Shown: positions 12,625-28,534 of the stretch, piece by piece
Layout of the letters: each line of letters begins with the position of its first letter
Numbering within the stretch: position 1 is the first letter of the stretch
Assembly: GCA_937874695.1 (NCBI GenBank)
Contig: CALNAJ010000041.1
Coordinates: forward strand, 1,458 to 65,457
DNA length: 64,000 nt
Reading direction: 5' to 3'
Source: an uncultured Lactobacillus sp.
GTDB lineage: Bacteria; Bacillota; Bacilli; Lactobacillales; Lactobacillaceae
Notes under the pieces: model-generated
Databases searched by the model: none
Told to the model about the DNA's origin: nothing
Seen by the model: the letters and a program-made list of their open reading frames with translations, nothing else
Program-made: the position numbers and the translations under genes

Positions 12625-12657
12625 TAAAAAAACACCAACCGAAGTTGGTGCTTTTTT
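12625..12657. terminator. bidirectional terminator hairpin downstream of csp
   Basis: AAAAAACACCAAC-CGAA-GTTGGTGCTTTTTT. Confidence 0.75.
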
Positions 12658-12680
12658 ACGACTCAGTTTAGGCTAATAAA

Positions 12681-12884
12681 TTAGTCGACAACTGATACGT
12701 TAGCAGCTTGTGGGCCACGGTCGCCTTGTTCTACATCAAGGGAAACGTGTTGGCCTTCTTCAAGCGTCTTGAAGCCTTCGCTGTTGATAGCGGAGAAGTG
12801 AACGAAAACGTCTGAGCCGTTTTCCAAAGTGATGAAGCCGTAACCTTTATCAGCGTTGAACCATTTAACAGTACCTTGTTCCAT
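12681..12884 (-). CDS. cold-shock protein (CspA family)
   Basis: [33 protein letters not shown] with RNP1/RNP2 motifs. Start trimmed to ATG 12884 after GGAGG (67 aa). Confidence 0.95.
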
Positions 12885-13077
12885 AAGAATGAAACCTCCA
12901 TGCGCATAGCGCAATAATATTTGCATTTGAAAGCTGGGGTAAAAAGGAGCCATTCTTATAAGAACGTCGAGCCTTTAAAACTTCCGAACCATAAATACAT
13001 TAACCATAGGATAACAGGTATTTCCCAGAATAGCAAATGCAAACTCCGATATTTTTAAAGTATTTTGCAATAAGTGC

Positions 13078-22028: not shown

Positions 22029-22712
22029 CTAGGCTGTGTGGTCCACACGCCGGGCGAGTAAGTCTCCAATTAATTGAATAGCAAACACGATAACTAAGAT
22101 AATCAGCATAGCCATAACGGTCACGTCGGTTTCAAAACGACTGTAACCAACGTTGATGGCCAAGTTACCTAAGCCACCACCCCCGATGGCACCAGCCATC
22201 GCGGTCAGGTCGATCAGACTGATCAACGTTAGGACGGAGGAGCGGATAATATCCGGAAGTCCTTCCTTTAAATAAACGCGAAAGATAATGGCAATCGGAC
22301 CAGAACCAACGGACTCGGCAGCTTCAACCACCCCATGGTCAACTTCGGCCAGGGCATTTTGAATCTGACGGGCGTAGAACGGTGCGGAGCCAATGACCAA
22401 TGGCACGATGGCTGCGGTCGTCCCAATCGCCGTCCCCACAATGATCCGGGTCAGCGGTGCAATCACGGCCAGTAAAATAACGAATGGAATCGACCGACAC
22501 AGGTTAACCAGCTTATCCAAGATGTTATAAACGACGCGATTTTCCAAGATACCACCGGGTTGGGTGACAATCAAACCAATCCCAATAGCCATCCCAATAA
22601 TCCCCGCAACAATGGCCGTAATAGCCGTCATGTAGAGGGTCTCACCGGTTGCCTGCAGGAAGTCACCCTTCATCGTGACCGCGTTAGGAAAGTATTTTGC
22701 TAATAAATTCAC
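22029..22712 (-). CDS. metI: methionine ABC transporter permease
   Basis: MetI-type permease sequence. GTG start immediately after the metN stop. Confidence 0.9.
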   Translation of the reverse strand: MNLLAKYFPNAVTMKGDFLQATGETLYMTAITAIVAGIIGMAIGIGLIVTQPGGILENRVVYNILDKLVNLCRSIPFVILLAVIAPLTRIIVGTAIGTTAAIVPLVIGSAPFYARQIQNALAEVDHGVVEAAESVGSGPIAIIFRVYLKEGLPDIIRSSVLTLISLIDLTAMAGAIGGGGLGNLAINVGYSRFETDVTVMAMLIILVIVFAIQLIGDLLARRVDHTA

Positions 22713-23774
22713 TTAGGCCACCTCCGAATCGTTAGGGTTCAAATGGGTAATGTTGATGCCGGCATCCTGACAATATTGCCAAGCGGCAGCCAACTTATCC
22801 GGTTCACCAGACATCACCACAATCAGATTCCCCAGTGGCGTATCCTGCAAGATTTCAACGTTTCCATATAAGATGTTCGAAACCACACCATACCGCTTAT
22901 ATAACTCGGTAATCAGCGGTGCGTCGGTGCTAGCACCCACATACTGCAGCTGAACCAATTGCTGGCTCTCGCTGAGATTGAGGGTTGCCGCTTGCCGGAA
23001 AATCTTTTCCAGCGCCTGGTTGATCTGTGTCGCCGTATTGATAAAGTCCTGCGTCAATGGCTTCTCTGGTCGACTGAAAATCGTGACTAAATCGCCCCGT
23101 TCGATGATTTCCCCAGCTTCCATGACGGCAACCTTGTTACAGATTTCCTTAACAGCTTCCATTTCATGGGTAATCAACACAACCGTCAGGCCCAATTCCT
23201 TGTTCAACCGCTTCAGTAATTCCAAAATGGATGAGGTGGTCTTGGGGTCCAACGCGCTGGTTGCTTCATCACTGATCAAAATTTCTGGGTCATTCGCCAA
23301 AGCTCTGGCGATGGCGACCCGTTGCTTCTGCCCACCAGAAAGTTGGGCAGGATAATCCTCGGCCTTTTCACTCAGACCAACCAGGTCCAACAGGTGAGCA
23401 ACCTTCTTCTTCCGTTCATCGCGGGAAAGCCGCCCTTTTAAGGGGTAGCCAACGTTATCCGCAATCGTCCGGGAAGCCATCAGGTTAAAGTGTTGGAAGA
23501 TCATCCCAATTTTCGTCCGCGCAGTCCGTAGCTCGCGGGGATTCAAGGCCAGAATATCCTGACCACTGACCTCCACGGAACCGGCAGTGGGCCGTTGGAG
23601 CCGGTTGATGACCCGCACCAACGTACTCTTCCCGGCGCCGGAATACCCGACGACCCCGTAGATGTCGCCGCGTTCTACCGTCAGCGAAACCTTTTTAACG
23701 GCTTCAACGGTCTGTCCCTTATTATGGAAGGTGACGTCGATATCTTTTAACTGAATAATCGCTTCGTTAGTCAA
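22713..23774 (-). CDS. metN: methionine ABC transporter ATP-binding protein
   Basis: Walker [10 protein letters not shown], signature LSGGQKQR, Walker B ILISDE, C-terminal NIL domain. TTG start after AAGGAGAA. Confidence 0.9.
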
Positions 23775-23973: not shown

Positions 23974-24789
23974 TTACCAAGCTGGAATGGTTAAGCCGTG
24001 GTAGTACTTCGTCAACAACTTCTTCGTGGCTTCAGTCTGGTAAGCCTTCACGATCTTCTTGTAGGTCTTGTTGTTCTTGTCAGACTTGTTGGTAGCGATG
24101 ATGTTGATGTAAGGGATGGAAGCCTTGTTGATCTTTTCCTTGAAGATGGTTTCGCTGTTTGGCAGCTTAGCTTCAGCAGCGAATTCGTTGTTGATAACGG
24201 CCCCGGCAGCATCGGTCAATGAACGTGGCGTTTGCGCAGCATCAACGGCCGTAATCTTCAAGTTCAACTTGTTTTGCGTGATGTTCTTTGGTGTTGGTAA
24301 TTCAACCTTGGAATCCACCTTGATCAAACCAGCGGATTGCAGTAAATGTAAGGCCCGGCCTTCGTTGGTTGAATCGTTAGGAATGGTGATTTGGTCACCC
24401 TTTTTGATGTCGGAAACATTCTTAACCTTCTTGGAGTATAACCGTAGTGGTGCGCGGACGGTCTTACCAATAGAAACGATGTTAGACTTGTGCGCCTTGT
24501 TCCATTGGTCCATGAAGTACGTGTGTTGGAAGGAGTTCAGGTCAATTTCGTGGTTCGTCAACGCAGCGTTAGGCTGGTTGTAGTCGGTGAAGGTCACCAG
24601 TTTGATGTTGATGCCTTGCTTCTTCAGCTTCGATTGGATAGGTTTCCAGATTTTTTCATCGGAACCCATGATCCCAATCTTAACGGTCTTGTTGCTGGAA
24701 CTACTGCTGGACTTACCACAACCAGCAACGATTAACAATGGAATCAATAATACCAAGAGCCAACTAAAATGTTTAAATGATTTCTTCAT
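23974..24789 (-). CDS. metQ: methionine-binding lipoprotein (NlpA/MetQ family)
   Basis: Lipobox VAGCG. MetQ-like sequence. ATG 24789 is 9 nt after GGGGA. Confidence 0.9.
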   Translation of the reverse strand: MKKSFKHFSWLLVLLIPLLIVAGCGKSSSSSSNKTVKIGIMGSDEKIWKPIQSKLKKQGINIKLVTFTDYNQPNAALTNHEIDLNSFQHTYFMDQWNKAHKSNIVSIGKTVRAPLRLYSKKVKNVSDIKKGDQITIPNDSTNEGRALHLLQSAGLIKVDSKVELPTPKNITQNKLNLKITAVDAAQTPRSLTDAAGAVINNEFAAEAKLPNSETIFKEKINKASIPYINIIATNKSDKNNKTYKKIVKAYQTEATKKLLTKYYHGLTIPAW

Positions 24790-24856
24790 ACTCAATATCC
24801 CCTTTATAATAAGTCATAATTAATTTGTTTAAATGTCGCGAGAGAAAACGGTGACC

Positions 24857-25135
24857 AAAAGAAAAGAGTCCGCTTCTAAATTAATAGAAACGAACTCTGT
24901 CGTGGTACCATTCTAATTCAAGTCAGACGTATGCCGACCCCTCATTAACACTCGCCAGCTTGCGCCTTAAAGTGCGTGCACGATAATGAGTGCCAAGCAT
25001 TACCACTTCATCACTAGGACTTAGCGGTACCAATTCATTTCAGGCCATCTTCACCCCGCCGTGGGTTACTCGCTTTCAGCAAAACGCGAGCTCTCTTGAA
25101 ACCATTGACGGTGGTTACTCTCCTGATCACATTGT
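24857..25135 (-). promoter_or_regulatory. T-box leader (Met specifier ATG) with terminator/antiterminator, controlling metQNI
   Basis: Minus strand: AGGAGAGTA and CAAGAGAG boxes in stem I; specifier-loop context GTGAAGATGGCC; T-box AATTAGAATGGTACCACG; terminator AGAGTTCGTTTCTA-TTAATT-TAGAAGCGGACTCT followed by TTTTCTTTT. Confidence 0.8.
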
Positions 25136-25159
25136 TTTCAATCGCTTAATTTAATAGCA

Positions 25160-25300: not shown

Positions 25301-25849
25301 TTAATCCCCGATAATCTGCTCACGCAAGATACCGGCTGCCAGTAAGAACATGTGCGTCACGACTGGACCAACGAAGCTGAACCCCCGCCGCTTTAAATCC
25401 TTGGCTACGGCACTGCCAATGGCCGACTGATTGGTCAGCTCATCACGCGTCACTGCCGGCAAGAGATACGGTGTCCCGTCAACGAAAGCCCACAGGTAGG
25501 CACTGAAGCTACCAAACTCCGCCTGCACTGTGAGGATGGCCCGCGCGTTCAGCAAAACGGCGCGAATCTTACGCTGATTACCGATCATCTCGGTATCGGC
25601 AGCAATCTCTGGAATCGCCAATTCATCGATCATTGCGGCCACTTTGGGAATCGCCATGCCGGCAAATACTCGCCGGTAGACTGGCAGCTTGCTGGCCGCC
25701 GCCTGCCAACTCAAACCAACCTGAAACACTCCAACTGTGAGGAGTTCGAACAGGACGTGGTCATCGTGAGTGGGTGTTCCAAAATAAGTATGGTACTCCT
25801 GCACGCCGTCCGTGTGCCAGTCCTGGCCGTCATTTGGACTGATAGTCAT
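25301..25849 (-). CDS. DNA-3-methyladenine glycosylase I family paralog lacking the zinc-snap residues
   Basis: Tag-like core (FELLTVGVFQVGLSWQ, IGNQRKIRAVLLNA, GFSFVGPVVTHMFLLAAG). Start set to ATG 25849 after AAGGGAG. The 105-codon upstream extension in the track runs through a repeat element. Confidence 0.8.
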   Translation of the reverse strand: MTISPNDGQDWHTDGVQEYHTYFGTPTHDDHVLFELLTVGVFQVGLSWQAAASKLPVYRRVFAGMAIPKVAAMIDELAIPEIAADTEMIGNQRKIRAVLLNARAILTVQAEFGSFSAYLWAFVDGTPYLLPAVTRDELTNQSAIGSAVAKDLKRRGFSFVGPVVTHMFLLAAGILREQIIGD

Positions 25850-25931
25850 GTTCAACCGCTCCCTTTCATTGCTAAATCCATTGTACACGAAGACTAGTTG
25901 GGAGGCGATTAGCTTTGAAATTACGAGTCCG

Positions 25932-26113
25932 TCGCCTGCGGCTGCCAGAGATTCCGCCTGTTGTGGGGACGCTTCAGCCTGAGAAGCGGGCTTCCCGCTC
26001 GCTTTGAAGCCACGAAGAACACGTGTCTCCAAAGTCGCCCGTGGTGTAAACCGGCCTAAAACGCCAGTTAACACCACCTCCACGGCTGGCTGCATCCCTG
26101 GCCTCCTCCGGCT
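25932..26113 (+). repeat. modular intergenic repeat, copy E (full-length variant, 182 nt)
   Basis: CGCCTGCGGCTGCCAGAGATTCCGCCTGTTGTGGGGACGCTTCAGCCTGAGAAGCGGGCTTCC ... GCATCCCTGGCCTCCTCCGGCTA. The central part differs in sequence but still forms a hairpin. Confidence 0.85.
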
Positions 26114-26476
26114 AAGATAACTTACAACCTCATAACAAAGTTTTCCCCAAATTATATCCATCATGAATTTGCCTAACGTGATCTATCATCTTTCTTTCGC
26201 GAACATTTGCGTATAAAGAAGGCCATTAATCCTGGCGTTTGGTCCAGAATTAATGGCCTTCACGGGAGATAACTGTACAACGACACTACTCTCTAACTGG
26301 GAAAGCTACCCCAAAATCATTCCGTGCCCACCACTGATGATTTTCTAGAGAACCATGAGCCGACAGACTTTCAGTTGCCTGAAATTTTCCCGTTATATCT
26401 ACAGTATGAATAACGACAAGTGCCCACGATTAATCAATAATTGGTGGTAAATCCAGCCGCAGGCGAGCTCCATCAG

Positions 26477-28126
26477 CTATTTAATATAAGCATACTTGTA
26501 ACTCCACTGCGTACCGGCGGTGTTGTGAATAACACCCTTAATCGATGGACGCTGCAAGTAGGCATAGTTCGCCTGGTAGAGTGGCGTAAAGCTCTGCTCC
26601 TTGTTGATCAGCTTAGATGCCTGAACCATGTCTTGCCACCGCGCTTCATCGTTTCCGGCATCGGCCCCCTGCGCCTTGTCGATCAAGGCATCGTACTGCT
26701 TGTTGGACCACTTACCATAGTTCAACGCATTCGAACTGACTGGAATCTGTAAGAAGGAAATTGGGTCGTTGAAGTCGGCACCCCAGTGAGACAAGTAGAG
26801 ATCAAAATCCCCACTGGTCGAGCGGGACTGTGCAACGGAAGCCGGAACATTTTCAATTTTCAAGTTGAAGCCACTCAGGTTCTTTTCCAACGTGCTCTTC
26901 AAATACTGAGTCACAGTGCTGGCCGCAACATCATCGTTTCCGGCTAGAATGTTCAGATTAACCTTCTTGATGCCCAATTGTTTCAGACCCGCTGCCCACT
27001 TCTGCTTGGCCAGTTTTGGATTGTAGGTCGTGGCGTTCTTGACCGTTTGCTGCTTAGCGAAGTCTTCACCCGTCTTGGGATCACTTGCTAAGCCACTGGC
27101 AACGAATCCAGTTGGCGTCACTGATCCATCCCCCAACACCTTCTTGGTCAGCTGACTGCGGTTGATGGAGAGTGCAATGGCCTGCCGGATGTTGCGGTTA
27201 TTCATGATCCGTCGCTTTTCCTGATTGGCATCCTTGAAGTTGTATTTCAGATGAATCACGATGGAATACGGATATTCCTTGAAGGCACTGTTGTTCTTGT
27301 AATTCTTAACCTGTTCCGTCGAAAGCTGCGCGAAATCAAGCTTCTTGTTCTGGTACAGGCTCAACCCAGTCTGAGGATTGGTGACCACTTGGTAATTGAT
27401 TTTCTGGAGCTTAACCACCTTCTTGTCCCAGTAGTGGTTGTTCTTGACGAAGGACCAGGTGTTCCCCGTCCCACTCCAGTTGGTAATCTTAAAGGGACCG
27501 CTGTAGACCATGTACTGTGACTTCGCGGCATACTTCTTGCCATACTTGTTGACGACCTTTTCATTTTGGGGCGCAAATAATGGGTATGCCATCAAAATCT
27601 TGAAGTACGCAATTGGCTTGTCCAACTGAATCACGACGGTCTGCTGGTTCTTAGCGTGAATCCCGATGGACGCTGGACTAGCCTTACCTGCAATGATTTT
27701 ATCGCCGTTCTTGATACCAGAGAACATGGTCGTGTAAGACGCCTTAGTTGACGGCGTTAAGGTGCGGCGCCAGGAATAAACGAAGTCTTGGGCGGTGATC
27801 TTATCGCCGTTACTCCACTTGGCGTTGTCACGAATGTGGAAAGTCCACGTCTTCTTGTCCTTGGAAACCTTGGCGGAATCCGCTAGGCCTGGCGCAACCT
27901 TCCCGTTCTTACCGAGACGGTAGAAACTTTCAAAGACGTTCCCTGTCTGACCGTACCCGGTCGCTTTGGCCAGGTCGATGGTGTCGAGCTGTGCCGTCGC
28001 GGGGAGTTTTAACTCTTGTGATGGCTTAGTCGTTGATGCCGTTTGACCACAAGCAGCTAATCCCAATCCCATTGCAATAACTGCGGCGACTAAGCCGATA
28101 CTGGTCCATTTTTTCATAAAATTCAT
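26477..28126 (-). CDS. peptide ABC-transporter substrate-binding lipoprotein (family 5, OppA-like), orphan
   Basis: Lipobox LAACG. WSNGDKITAQDFVYSWRR. Start trimmed to ATG 28126 (MNFMKKW...). No cognate permease or ATPase nearby. Confidence 0.85.
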   Translation of the reverse strand: MNFMKKWTSIGLVAAVIAMGLGLAACGQTASTTKPSQELKLPATAQLDTIDLAKATGYGQTGNVFESFYRLGKNGKVAPGLADSAKVSKDKKTWTFHIRDNAKWSNGDKITAQDFVYSWRRTLTPSTKASYTTMFSGIKNGDKIIAGKASPASIGIHAKNQQTVVIQLDKPIAYFKILMAYPLFAPQNEKVVNKYGKKYAAKSQYMVYSGPFKITNWSGTGNTWSFVKNNHYWDKKVVKLQKINYQVVTNPQTGLSLYQNKKLDFAQLSTEQVKNYKNNSAFKEYPYSIVIHLKYNFKDANQEKRRIMNNRNIRQAIALSINRSQLTKKVLGDGSVTPTGFVASGLASDPKTGEDFAKQQTVKNATTYNPKLAKQKWAAGLKQLGIKKVNLNILAGNDDVAASTVTQYLKSTLEKNLSGFNLKIENVPASVAQSRSTSGDFDLYLSHWGADFNDPISFLQIPVSSNALNYGKWSNKQYDALIDKAQGADAGNDEARWQDMVQASKLINKEQSFTPLYQANYAYLQRPSIKGVIHNTAGTQWSYKYAYIK

Positions 28127-28180
28127 AGCTCCCTTTTCCTCAAATTTAGTGGTGTGCAATCCCCAAATTCGTGTTTAAGT

Positions 28181-28230
28181 ACAGAAAAAGGCGGGTCTCC
28201 CTTCACATAATCGTGATGGGAAACCCGCCT
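28181..28230 (-). terminator. intrinsic terminator inside the 5' leader of the oppA-like gene (attenuator candidate)
   Basis: Minus strand AGGCGGGTTTCCC-(16-nt loop)-GGGAGACCCGCCT (13 bp, one G-U), followed by TTTTTCTGT. Lies 55 nt upstream of the CDS start. Confidence 0.8.
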
Positions 28231-28268
28231 ACAGTGACAACAATCGCTGTTGTCGTCGTTATGTAGGT

Positions 28269-28373
28269 CTACTGGCTAGCCGGAAAATCACGATTAAACG
28301 CAACACAAACAAGCACGTTACATTGGCAACATGCGGCTAACATCATTTGTTGTTGGTTGGCGTTTACGAGCAT
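28269..28373 (-). CDS. candidate 34-codon Cys-rich leader mini-ORF
   Basis: AGGAGGG, 9 nt, then ATG 28373. Translation MLVNANQQQMMLAACCQCNVLVCVAFNRDFPASQ, TAG at 28269-28271. The start and the last codons are paired in a 13-bp stem (28282-28294 / 28372-28384). Confidence 0.4.
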   Translation of the reverse strand: MLVNANQQQMMLAACCQCNVLVCVAFNRDFPASQ

Positions 28374-28424
28374 CGTGATTTTCCCTCCTAACTTTTTGTA
28401 ATCGAATTGGATTGCACAAGATTA

Positions 28425-28453
28425 AAGATAGCCTTCTTCTTTCGATTTGTCAA
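28425..28453 (-). promoter_or_regulatory. candidate promoter of the leader/oppA-like transcript
   Basis: Minus strand TTGACA (28448-28453), 17 nt spacer, TATCTT (28425-28430). Confidence 0.4.
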
Positions 28454-28534
28454 AAGAAAAAACTCGTCACTAACATCTCCCCCTGGAAAACTGTATACTG
28501 GTGATAGTTGAACTAGTAGAAAGGATTTGAACGT

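Follow-up and report, generated by a model that had tools for sequence, protein, structure and literature searches.

In the Firmicutes, amino-acid sensing usually falls to T-boxes and riboswitches, with leader peptides the exception. Leader-peptide attenuators are considered rare in this phylum, although a His leader has been reported in bacilli (PMC2965389). For cysteine, the closest described systems are the uORFC-8-2 candidate in the Rhodobacterales cysS leader, whose tandem Cys codons (at about positions 14–15) lie in a first stem that is followed by a terminator (Brewer et al. 2021, PMC8632094), and the polycysteine upstream open reading frames (uORFs) and cys leader-peptide attenuators of Actinobacteria, including mycobacteria (bioRxiv 10.1101/834739; Seliverstov et al. 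2005, PMC1262725). Here we describe a leader from a 64,000-nucleotide stretch of DNA (assembly GCA_937874695.1, contig CALNAJ010000041.1, positions 1,458 to 65,457; hereafter the window), which is that of a Levilactobacillus genome. Lying at window positions 28127–28453, upstream of a gene for an OppA-family lipoprotein (oppA), it contains a Cys-rich mini-open reading frame (mini-ORF) within a long hairpin, followed by an intrinsic terminator. That the leader is a real, conserved, cis-regulatory element seems to us very probable. That cysteine is the signal, read through the decoding of the Cys codons, and that a three-state, ribosome-mediated transcription attenuation is essentially the correct description, is the reading we favour on the strength of sequence comparison, with a probability of roughly 60%. 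We file the leader under the known class of ribosome-mediated amino-acid attenuators, as a new instance in Lactobacillaceae; neither Rfam 15 nor the literature that could be searched describes a Cys-specific attenuator of this sort for the family.

The leader comprises the following elements, all coordinates being window positions.

28453-48 (-35, TTGACA) and 28430-25 (-10, TATCTT), minus strand: sigma-70-type promoter with a 17-nt spacer, 10/12 consensus matches.
28409..28418, minus strand: 5' strand of helix P0, UGUGCAAUCC, at the transcript's extreme 5' end.
28383..28389, minus strand: Shine–Dalgarno (SD) sequence of the mini-ORF, AGGAGGG, 9 nt ahead of ATG 28373, its final two G within helix P1a.
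28269..28373, minus strand: mini-ORF from ATG 28373 to TAG 28271-69, 34 codons, peptide MLVNANQQQMMLAACCQCNVLVCVAFNRDFPASQ.
28331-29, 28328-26, 28322-20 and 28307-05, minus strand: Cys codons of the mini-ORF, forming Cys-Cys-x-Cys at codons 15-18, plus Cys 23.
28372..28384, minus strand: arm A (GGAAAAUCACGAU), the 5' strand of P1a, running from within the SD through the spacer to the first two nucleotides (AU) of the AUG.
28366-60 with 28301-295, minus strand: helix P1b, TAAACGC/GCGTTTA.
28313..28334, minus strand: apical hairpin P1c, GCAUGUUGC-CAAU-GUAACGUGC, 9 bp, holding the Cys-Cys-x-Cys codons and followed by a U-rich tract.
28282..28296, minus strand: arm A' (UAAUCGUGAUUUUCC), forming the 3' side of P1a where the mini-ORF ends, with the terminator top as alternative partner.
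28236..28254, minus strand: small hairpin P2, GACAACA-GCGA-UUGUUGUC.
28185..28229, minus strand: intrinsic terminator, with its stem at 28229-28190 and UUUUU at 28189-85, 18 bp, -34.9 kcal/mol.
28217-08, minus strand: top of the terminator's 5' strand (T5) together with the loop, AUCACGAUUA, the alternative partner of A'.
28153..28162, minus strand: 3' strand of P0, GGAUUGCACA, starting 22 nt after the U-tract and ending 12 nt before the oppA SD region.

The promoter, the SD, the 34-codon mini-ORF with its four Cys codons, the long and small hairpins and the terminator all lie where an initial annotation of this DNA had placed them; P0 was absent from its list of elements. Its count of three occurrences in the leader for the octamer ATCACGAT or its complement was borne out by a repeat search, and a simple consensus scan agreed with it in listing no promoter-like site between the terminator and the oppA coding sequence. 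Transcription probably starts near 28418, to judge from the promoter sequence, and the 5' untranslated region of the mini-ORF is ~45 nt long; all leaders that could be aligned over the promoter have TTGACA as the -35 element, then a -10-like hexamer 17 nt on. The arms at the base of the long hairpin (28384-72 and 28294-82) are 13 nt long and 100% complementary, and the fold of the 311-nt leader, at -110.2 kcal/mol, compares with -73.6 +/- 4.3 in dinucleotide shuffles (z = -8.6), none of 100 shuffles being as stable. In the window scan, P1c together with the conserved U-rich tract UUGUUUG scored as a terminator-like hairpin. The leader contains neither a T-box sequence, as the initial annotation had also noted, nor a Stem I: the T-box model RF00230 gives no match in 28127-28453 at E<=10, while the neighbouring metQ leader scores 80 bits. 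More generally, Rfam 15 has no match in the leader at the gathering threshold or at E<=10 (in scans of the window and of a 9-kb neighbourhood), nor in the orthologous leaders of 17 related loci, and no other copy of the leader was found within the window.

Among 75 related loci retrieved, blastn aligned the leader with its counterparts in some 35 species of Levilactobacillus, at identities from 99% down to ~65%, and it lies upstream of the orthologous oppA gene in every Levilactobacillus species retrieved. An SD-preceded, ATG-started ORF of 28-37 codons, with the core AACC[EQVK]CN[VM] and 4-5 Cys codons, is present in 31/33 Levilactobacillus leaders; the other two, incomplete in the first extraction, were recovered separately and have ORFs of 30 and 35 codons. 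A GGAGG-type SD stands ~8-13 nt ahead of the aligned ATG in every fully extracted leader. The stretch from the ATG to the core is free to vary in nucleotide sequence, but all of its indels are multiples of 3. After the Cys core, indels of 1-2 nt shift the frame between clades, and the C-termini of the Levilactobacillus peptides fall into unrelated classes (...NRDFPANQ, ...CSLRCSNS, ...IRDFPAKP, ...ALRSSVISQPS); despite these frame shifts, the stop codon is always found within A' (UGA) or just after it (UAG). By these sequence criteria it is as a coding unit, and not as a protein, that the mini-ORF is conserved. The initial annotation had set the conservation of the ORF against that of the stems, and both are seen: the SD, the start, the in-frame N-terminal part, the Cys core and the covarying stems are kept, and it is the C-terminal frame that is not.

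Only one of these leaders, in Levilactobacillus cerevisiae DSM 100836 (L012:2690-3010), is without the terminator: the hairpin is almost wholly deleted (at the junction ...AAACGG / TTAATTTTGCGGATTGCACA), with promoter, P0, SD, mini-ORF and P2 intact, and constitutive oppA expression is predicted for this strain.

Selection on the RNA structure is apparent from RNAalifold and from pair counts on 30 Levilactobacillus leaders, for which 500 shuffles and slid alignments served as controls. The consensus has six main helices – P0, P1a, P1b, P1c, P2 and the terminator – and in this terminator-state structure 97.3% of cells are paired, with 19 pairs changed on both sides (75 such cells), values reached by 0/500 shuffles; the slid controls are only 31-48% paired. 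Both-side changes occur at 7/11 pairs in P1a and at 7 pairs in the terminator, and P2, 98.7% paired, has 2 compensatory pairs. P1c is 98.5% paired and nearly invariant; constrained by both the Cys codons and the pairing, it says little either way.

The helix that the initial annotation lacked, P0, joins the first nucleotides of the transcript (28418-09) to a segment beyond the terminator (28162-53) by 10 bp. It is paired in 99.3% of cells across the 30 species; one pair shows a GC->AU change, a second occurs as four pair types, and there are G-U wobbles. These wobbles and compensatory changes led us to reject the idea that the P0 repeats are two DNA operator sites. As its 3' strand lies past the terminator and covaries, the read-through RNA is itself under selection. 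In Ca. L. faecigallinarum (L026) this strand still adjoins the terminator despite ~130 nt inserted before oppA, and P0 is therefore part of the attenuator domain and not of the oppA ribosome-binding site. No convincing equivalent was found in the other genera, and P0 appears to be specific to Levilactobacillus.

Outside Levilactobacillus, the same architecture precedes an OppA orthologue or paralogue in five lineages with almost no nucleotide similarity, listed here with the identity of their OppA proteins and their leader peptides.

Lentilactobacillus: OppA identity 65-67%, leader peptide MQ.S....MCCSMCQ.QVS.DRGFFG...
Pediococcus: OppA identity 56-59%, leader peptide MLFTN.KS...C.CC..D.M.FGRRK (two with GTG starts).
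Lactiplantibacillus nangangensis: OppA identity 54%, leader peptide MKKNATQMMMCCPCCESDNMAICVELQASLVQQN.
'Lactobacillus' corticis: OppA identity 59% (matched paralogue), leader peptides MINWLAQNQACCACCQLCNMLFELPAKPSLGRY and MAEVQVKTQCCQCNILFELPASLIF.
Liquorilactobacillus ghanensis: OppA identity 37%, leader peptide MCGKLQLIMCQTYSCCEKHSMLFEVPIVEQQNSSY.

In total, 44 loci, spread over about six lineages of Lactobacillaceae, combine SD, Cys-Cys mini-ORF, SD-sequestering hairpin and terminator, and the adjacent Cys-Cys pair is invariant in all 44. It sits at codons 10-16, accompanied by 1-3 further Cys codons whose positions vary, so that each peptide of 25-37 aa has 3-5 Cys codons; given a random-codon expectation of 2/61, the chance of the observed Cys content is 0.004-0.1 per lineage. 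The residues flanking the cysteines differ by genus (AACCECNV, MCCSMCQ, CACCLKDHM, MCCPCCESDNM). Among 18 representatives from five genera, all have an A:A' pairing that hides the SD and AUG (-11 to -24 kcal/mol), and all have a strong terminator after the mini-ORF (-15 to -35 kcal/mol). A hairpin equivalent to P1c (CAUGUUGU...ACAACAUG) holds the Cys-Cys codons in Pediococcus, L038 ('L.' corticis) and L039. A search by nhmmer with the Levilactobacillus leader alignment reached L039 with E = 2e-4 and L038 with E = 0.9, and nothing in the other distant leaders; what is conserved is thus architecture rather than sequence. With nhmmer support only marginally significant, cross-genus homology of the leaders rests on synteny, architecture and peptide motifs (such as ...FPAKP vs ...LPAKP).

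In 'L.' corticis (L038:911-1012 and 2812-2889), each of two tandem OppA paralogues is preceded by a separate Cys-rich leader ORF with its terminator, so gene and leader were duplicated as one. A metagenome scan with the Levilactobacillus core GCATGTTGYNNATGTAACRTG gave 15 matches, two of them real and both L. brevis-like, one upstream of oppA and one at a contig end; the remaining 13, which have no wider similarity to the leader or to OppA, were taken as chance. The metagenomic examples and those from metagenome-assembled genomes (L035, L076, L078) add no new gene context.

The initial annotation had proposed a translation-coupled attenuator sensing cysteine or methionine. Its cysteine half is upheld by the Cys-Cys cluster, SD, hairpin and terminator of the 44 loci and by the compensatory changes in the helices; methionine sensing we reject, as the Met pair at codons 10-11 is not conserved across the leaders. 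The favoured model can be outlined as follows. Transcription would start near 28418, and the strong SD would load a ribosome on the 34-codon mini-ORF before A' is transcribed. Without translation, A would pair with A', the 18-bp terminator would form, transcription would stop at 28185-89 and the gene would be OFF. With Cys-tRNA plentiful, the ribosome would reach the stop codon at or just past A' and cover A' as T5 emerges, so that the terminator would again form (OFF). With Cys-tRNA scarce, the lead ribosome would stall at codons 15-18 in the apical hairpin, opening P1b and P1c, the upper two thirds of the long hairpin; A would meanwhile be occupied by a trailing ribosome, or be sterically unable to close around the stalled one. 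The free A' (UAAUCGUGAU) could then capture AUCACGAUUA, the T5 top with the loop, while the 3' strand of the terminator is still to be made, which would block terminator nucleation and allow read-through (ON). P1c with its U-rich tract may act as a pause hairpin that lets the ribosome catch up. P0, formable only in read-through RNA, would probably give the full-length mRNA a protected, stabilised 5' end, much as 5'-terminal stems stabilise mRNA against RNase J in Bacillus subtilis. The induced binding protein would presumably scavenge Cys-containing peptides or glutathione. What the comparison shows are the elements, their conservation and covariation, and the potential for alternative pairing; which signal stalls the ribosome, in what order the events follow, what P0 does and what OppA binds are the parts of this model that we infer. 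The specific antiterminator and the role assigned to P0 we offer only tentatively.

The alternative pairing is possible because A and the T5 top share UCACGA, so that A' can pair with either. In the window, A' and the T5 top form 10 bp (UAAUCGUGAU, 28296-87, with AUCACGAUUA, 28217-08), and the extended duplex reaches -20 kcal/mol (z = -3.1). The 8-pair helix that holds the core of this pairing is 89.5% paired across the genus (30 species), with a few compensatory cells. When the RNA is cut off at the terminator loop and both the start region and the Cys region are masked, as by a stalled ribosome and another behind it, constrained consensus folding yields A':T5-top as the consensus helix; with a ribosome on the stop codon, or with no ribosome, the constrained fold forms the terminator. 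The terminator top and loop of Lentilactobacillus find their partner in the segment immediately 5' of A' (UUAGCACUGA with UCAGUGUUAA, -18 to -20 kcal/mol, z ~ -3), and this alternative helix shows A->G and U->C changes; by reading of the sequences, one of its pairs goes from A-U (L030) through G-U (L031) to G-C (L032). An extended antiterminator, in which CCGGCUAAACCGU would pair with the terminator base, was dropped, the pairing not being conserved in the window's own clade.

Several observations weigh against this reading. The proposed antiterminator is less stable thermodynamically than the terminator, shows mostly invariance and little covariation, and overlaps only the upper part and loop of the terminator; the alternative pairing of Pediococcus is weak. 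The stall site (codons 15-18) lies 26-29 nt downstream of arm A, a distance at which one stalled ribosome does not mask A, and a constrained fold with the Cys region alone masked keeps A:A'. The Cys core is near-invariant at synonymous sites, which could reflect constraint at the RNA level alone. By sequence, OppA is a generic oligopeptide binder, and no such leader was found before any other gene in the window, the related loci or the metagenome scan, so that no 'Cys regulon' backs the signal. Transcription and translation are reported to be poorly coupled in B. subtilis, and this makes attenuation of the trp type less obvious in Firmicutes.

A first rival reading is an attenuator that is translation-dependent but responds to ribosome stalling in general – caused by antibiotics or by global amino-acid or translation stress, as in bmrCD, vmlR and erm-type systems – with Cys codons incidental to the hairpin. 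The architecture of an SD-preceded uORF inside a hairpin, then a terminator, matches such systems; the ribosome-mediated attenuators reported from Firmicutes include several antibiotic-sensing cases (PMC9226507, PMC6851288); and the Cys codons are in part dictated by the sequence of the palindromic hairpin in which they lie. However, extra Cys codons stand outside the hairpin, at positions differing by genus, Lentilactobacillus keeps UGC UGU ... UGU though its local Cys-region hairpin is weak, and the target is a nutrient-binding protein rather than a resistance factor, all of which makes this explanation unlikely.

The invariance of the core GCAUGUUGCGAAUGUAACGUG even at synonymous sites, together with the recurrence of UCACGA in A and the terminator and the stable fold of the leader (z = -8.6), could also be taken to mean that a trans-acting factor or ligand binds the apical hairpin or the repeated AUCACGAU, the mini-ORF being accessory or untranslated. 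Against this stand the SD and start at proper spacing in 44 loci, the N-terminal indels that stay in frame, and a stop codon that remains at or after A' whatever the frame; moreover, the invariant nucleotides are not common to other genera, whereas the Cys codons are, and the RNA matches no Rfam family. We regard such a factor- or ligand-binding RNA as rather improbable.

If the peptide itself mattered, its nascent core (A-A-C-C-x-C-N), inside the exit tunnel, might arrest the ribosome on sensing a thiol, redox state or metal, whatever the charging of tRNA-Cys. Metal binding is known of Cys-rich motifs, Levilactobacillus conserves the amino acids of the core and CC-containing cores are present in all genera, but between genera only the Cys residues are shared and their flanks differ, and within Levilactobacillus the overlapping hairpin explains the conservation. 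We know of no precedent for an arrest-peptide sensor of this kind and consider it highly improbable. Scarcely better placed is the broader speculation that such a nascent Cys-rich sensor of thiol, redox or metal combines with a P0 that stabilises only read-through RNA, as a two-layer switch dedicating an OppA paralogue to cysteine or glutathione scavenging across Lactobacillaceae.

Finally, the stand-alone small gene that the initial annotation had raised as its other hypothesis – a type I toxin-like, signalling or micro-protein mRNA ending at the terminator, with oppA expressed separately – draws on a moderately hydrophobic stretch of the window peptide (LAACCQCNVLVCVAF, Kyte-Doolittle 15-residue mean 2.1), a 5'-3' hairpin that hides the SD, an arrangement found among many mRNAs of type I toxins, and the relationship of OppA to the pheromone receptor PrgZ, but fails so broadly that we give it almost no weight, since even closely related clades encode the C-terminal half of the peptide in different frames, the homologues from other genera are hydrophilic (maximum 15-residue Kyte-Doolittle mean 0.7-1.5), no promoter is listed antisense to the leader (on the plus strand there are no promoter-like sites within 28127-28420, the nearest, at 28447-28499, facing a divergent glycosidase gene) or between terminator and oppA, the covarying P0 ties the 5' end to sequence past the terminator, and the leader is found only immediately before an OppA-family gene or, in L076, at a contig end.

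The gene that the ribosome-mediated attenuator would control is laid out as follows.

26477..28140, minus strand: OppA-family lipoprotein gene, with its SD region GAGGAAAAGGGAG at 28141-28129, a probable ATG start at 28117, lipobox LAAC and its end at 26477.

By sequence comparison, the conserved start is most likely ATG 28117 (MKKWTSIGL...), neither the TTG 28159 of the mechanical ORF nor the position 28126 that had first been assigned, because most other species are without an ATG at the latter position. The protein shares 98% identity with its counterpart in Levilactobacillus fuyuanensis and 97% with the one in L. parabrevis; its closest solved structures are 5kzt (E = 1e-113), 6npo and PrgZ, and among NCBIfam models only generic OppA-family ones match. 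An affinity with the glutathione binder GsiB, suggested by the initial annotation, found no support: with the GsiB model the protein reaches only 53 bits, the cut-off being 594, and the best relatives are the oligopeptide binders just named. The gene is a local orphan, as the initial annotation had described it, with no permease or ATPase genes flanking it. OppA presumably serves the uptake of Cys-containing peptides or glutathione, a role for which the leader is the sole indication. Such scavenging is plausible because Opp systems are reported as glutathione importers in E. coli and Listeria is reported to draw cysteine from glutathione, and because an OppA paralogue exists under a Met T-box.

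This paralogue belongs to Liquorilactobacillus vini (L050:2652-2888; OppA identity 40%), where a T-box of 93.9 bits with the specifier GAA-U-AUG-G, hence Met, lies ahead of it; amino-acid-specific control of OppA paralogues therefore occurs in Lactobacillaceae. In the window itself, a T-box precedes metQNI (24883-25139, minus strand; 80.1 bits, under the Rfam gathering score of 93, E = 1.4e-16), with the specifier region GAA-G-AUG-G, hence again Met; as had been noted from the sequence, it is 1.3 kb from the oppA end, and the three metQNI genes follow at 23974-24795, 22713-23774 and 22029-22712. Downstream of oppA, the ORF 25301-26164 (minus strand) matches DNA-3-methyladenine glycosylase I over residues 123-286 only; the 120 residues at its N-terminus probably come from an over-called start, and ~0.6 kb after oppA would then be without an assigned gene. 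In L. namurensis (L022), Ca. L. faecigallinarum (L026) and L. spicheri (L041), a GC-rich insert of ~100-150 nt lies between the terminator and the oppA SD; that of L041 contains a long palindrome (GGCCCTGCCGTCCCCCGTTGG...CCAACGGGGCACGGCAGGGGC), and the insert looks like a small mobile element or one resembling repetitive extragenic palindromes (REP). Elsewhere in the window (12625-12985, minus strand), Rfam reports a match to the cspA thermoregulator RF01766 (89.6 bits against a gathering score of 78); this family comes from enterobacteria, and a match in Lactobacillaceae is unexpected.

Lactic acid bacteria have many OppA paralogues that are unexplained; should the cysteine reading be true, one of them would gain a role, in the uptake of cysteine as peptides or glutathione. 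Strains from sourdough, beer and dairy, for which this would matter, are often cysteine-limited. A helix such as P0, bridging the 5' end and the post-terminator region, would be an unusual addition to an attenuator.

How, then, does the leader compare with the systems described so far? It shares with uORFC-8-2 the tandem Cys codons (here at codons 15-16) in a first stem, a second stem with a U-run as terminator, and the proposal that stalling at Cys leads to read-through. The resemblance is architectural; uORFC-8-2 belongs to Alphaproteobacteria and cysS, and the present leader to Lactobacillaceae and an OppA-family gene; the latter, furthermore, adds SD/AUG sequestration, 1-3 additional Cys codons and the terminator-spanning P0. 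The actinobacterial Cys leaders are likewise short ORFs with runs of Cys codons upstream of genes, responsive to cysteine via ribosome stalling. Yet they are leaderless, lack a recognisable intrinsic terminator and control cysteine biosynthesis operons, whereas in the Levilactobacillus leader the SD is strong and sequestered by a hairpin, the terminator is canonical and the target is a transporter component.

The proteobacterial trp, his and leu attenuators, and the bacillar His leader, have in common with it regulatory codons in an enclosing hairpin, a stop codon placed for masking the antiterminator strand, and an intrinsic terminator. Unlike in these systems, however, the strand that competes for the antiterminator is here the SD/AUG arm, which contains no regulatory codons; the proposed antiterminator reaches only the terminator top and loop; and the amino acid is cysteine and the gene one of uptake rather than biosynthesis. 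Closer to home, the T-boxes on OppA and MetQ genes in Lactobacillaceae (L. vini and the window's metQNI) likewise read tRNA charging to attenuate, in an amino-acid-specific manner, the transcription of a binding protein for sulfur amino-acid acquisition, but they bind uncharged tRNA directly and need no translation, in contrast to the translated mini-ORF predicted here. What sets the present leader apart is that it sequesters its own uORF start, that the proposed antiterminator would engage the terminator by its top and loop, that its target is a transporter gene, and that it has the P0 clamp. A Cys-codon leader across several Lactobacillaceae genera would, if true, be a clear counter-example to the rarity of such systems in Firmicutes.

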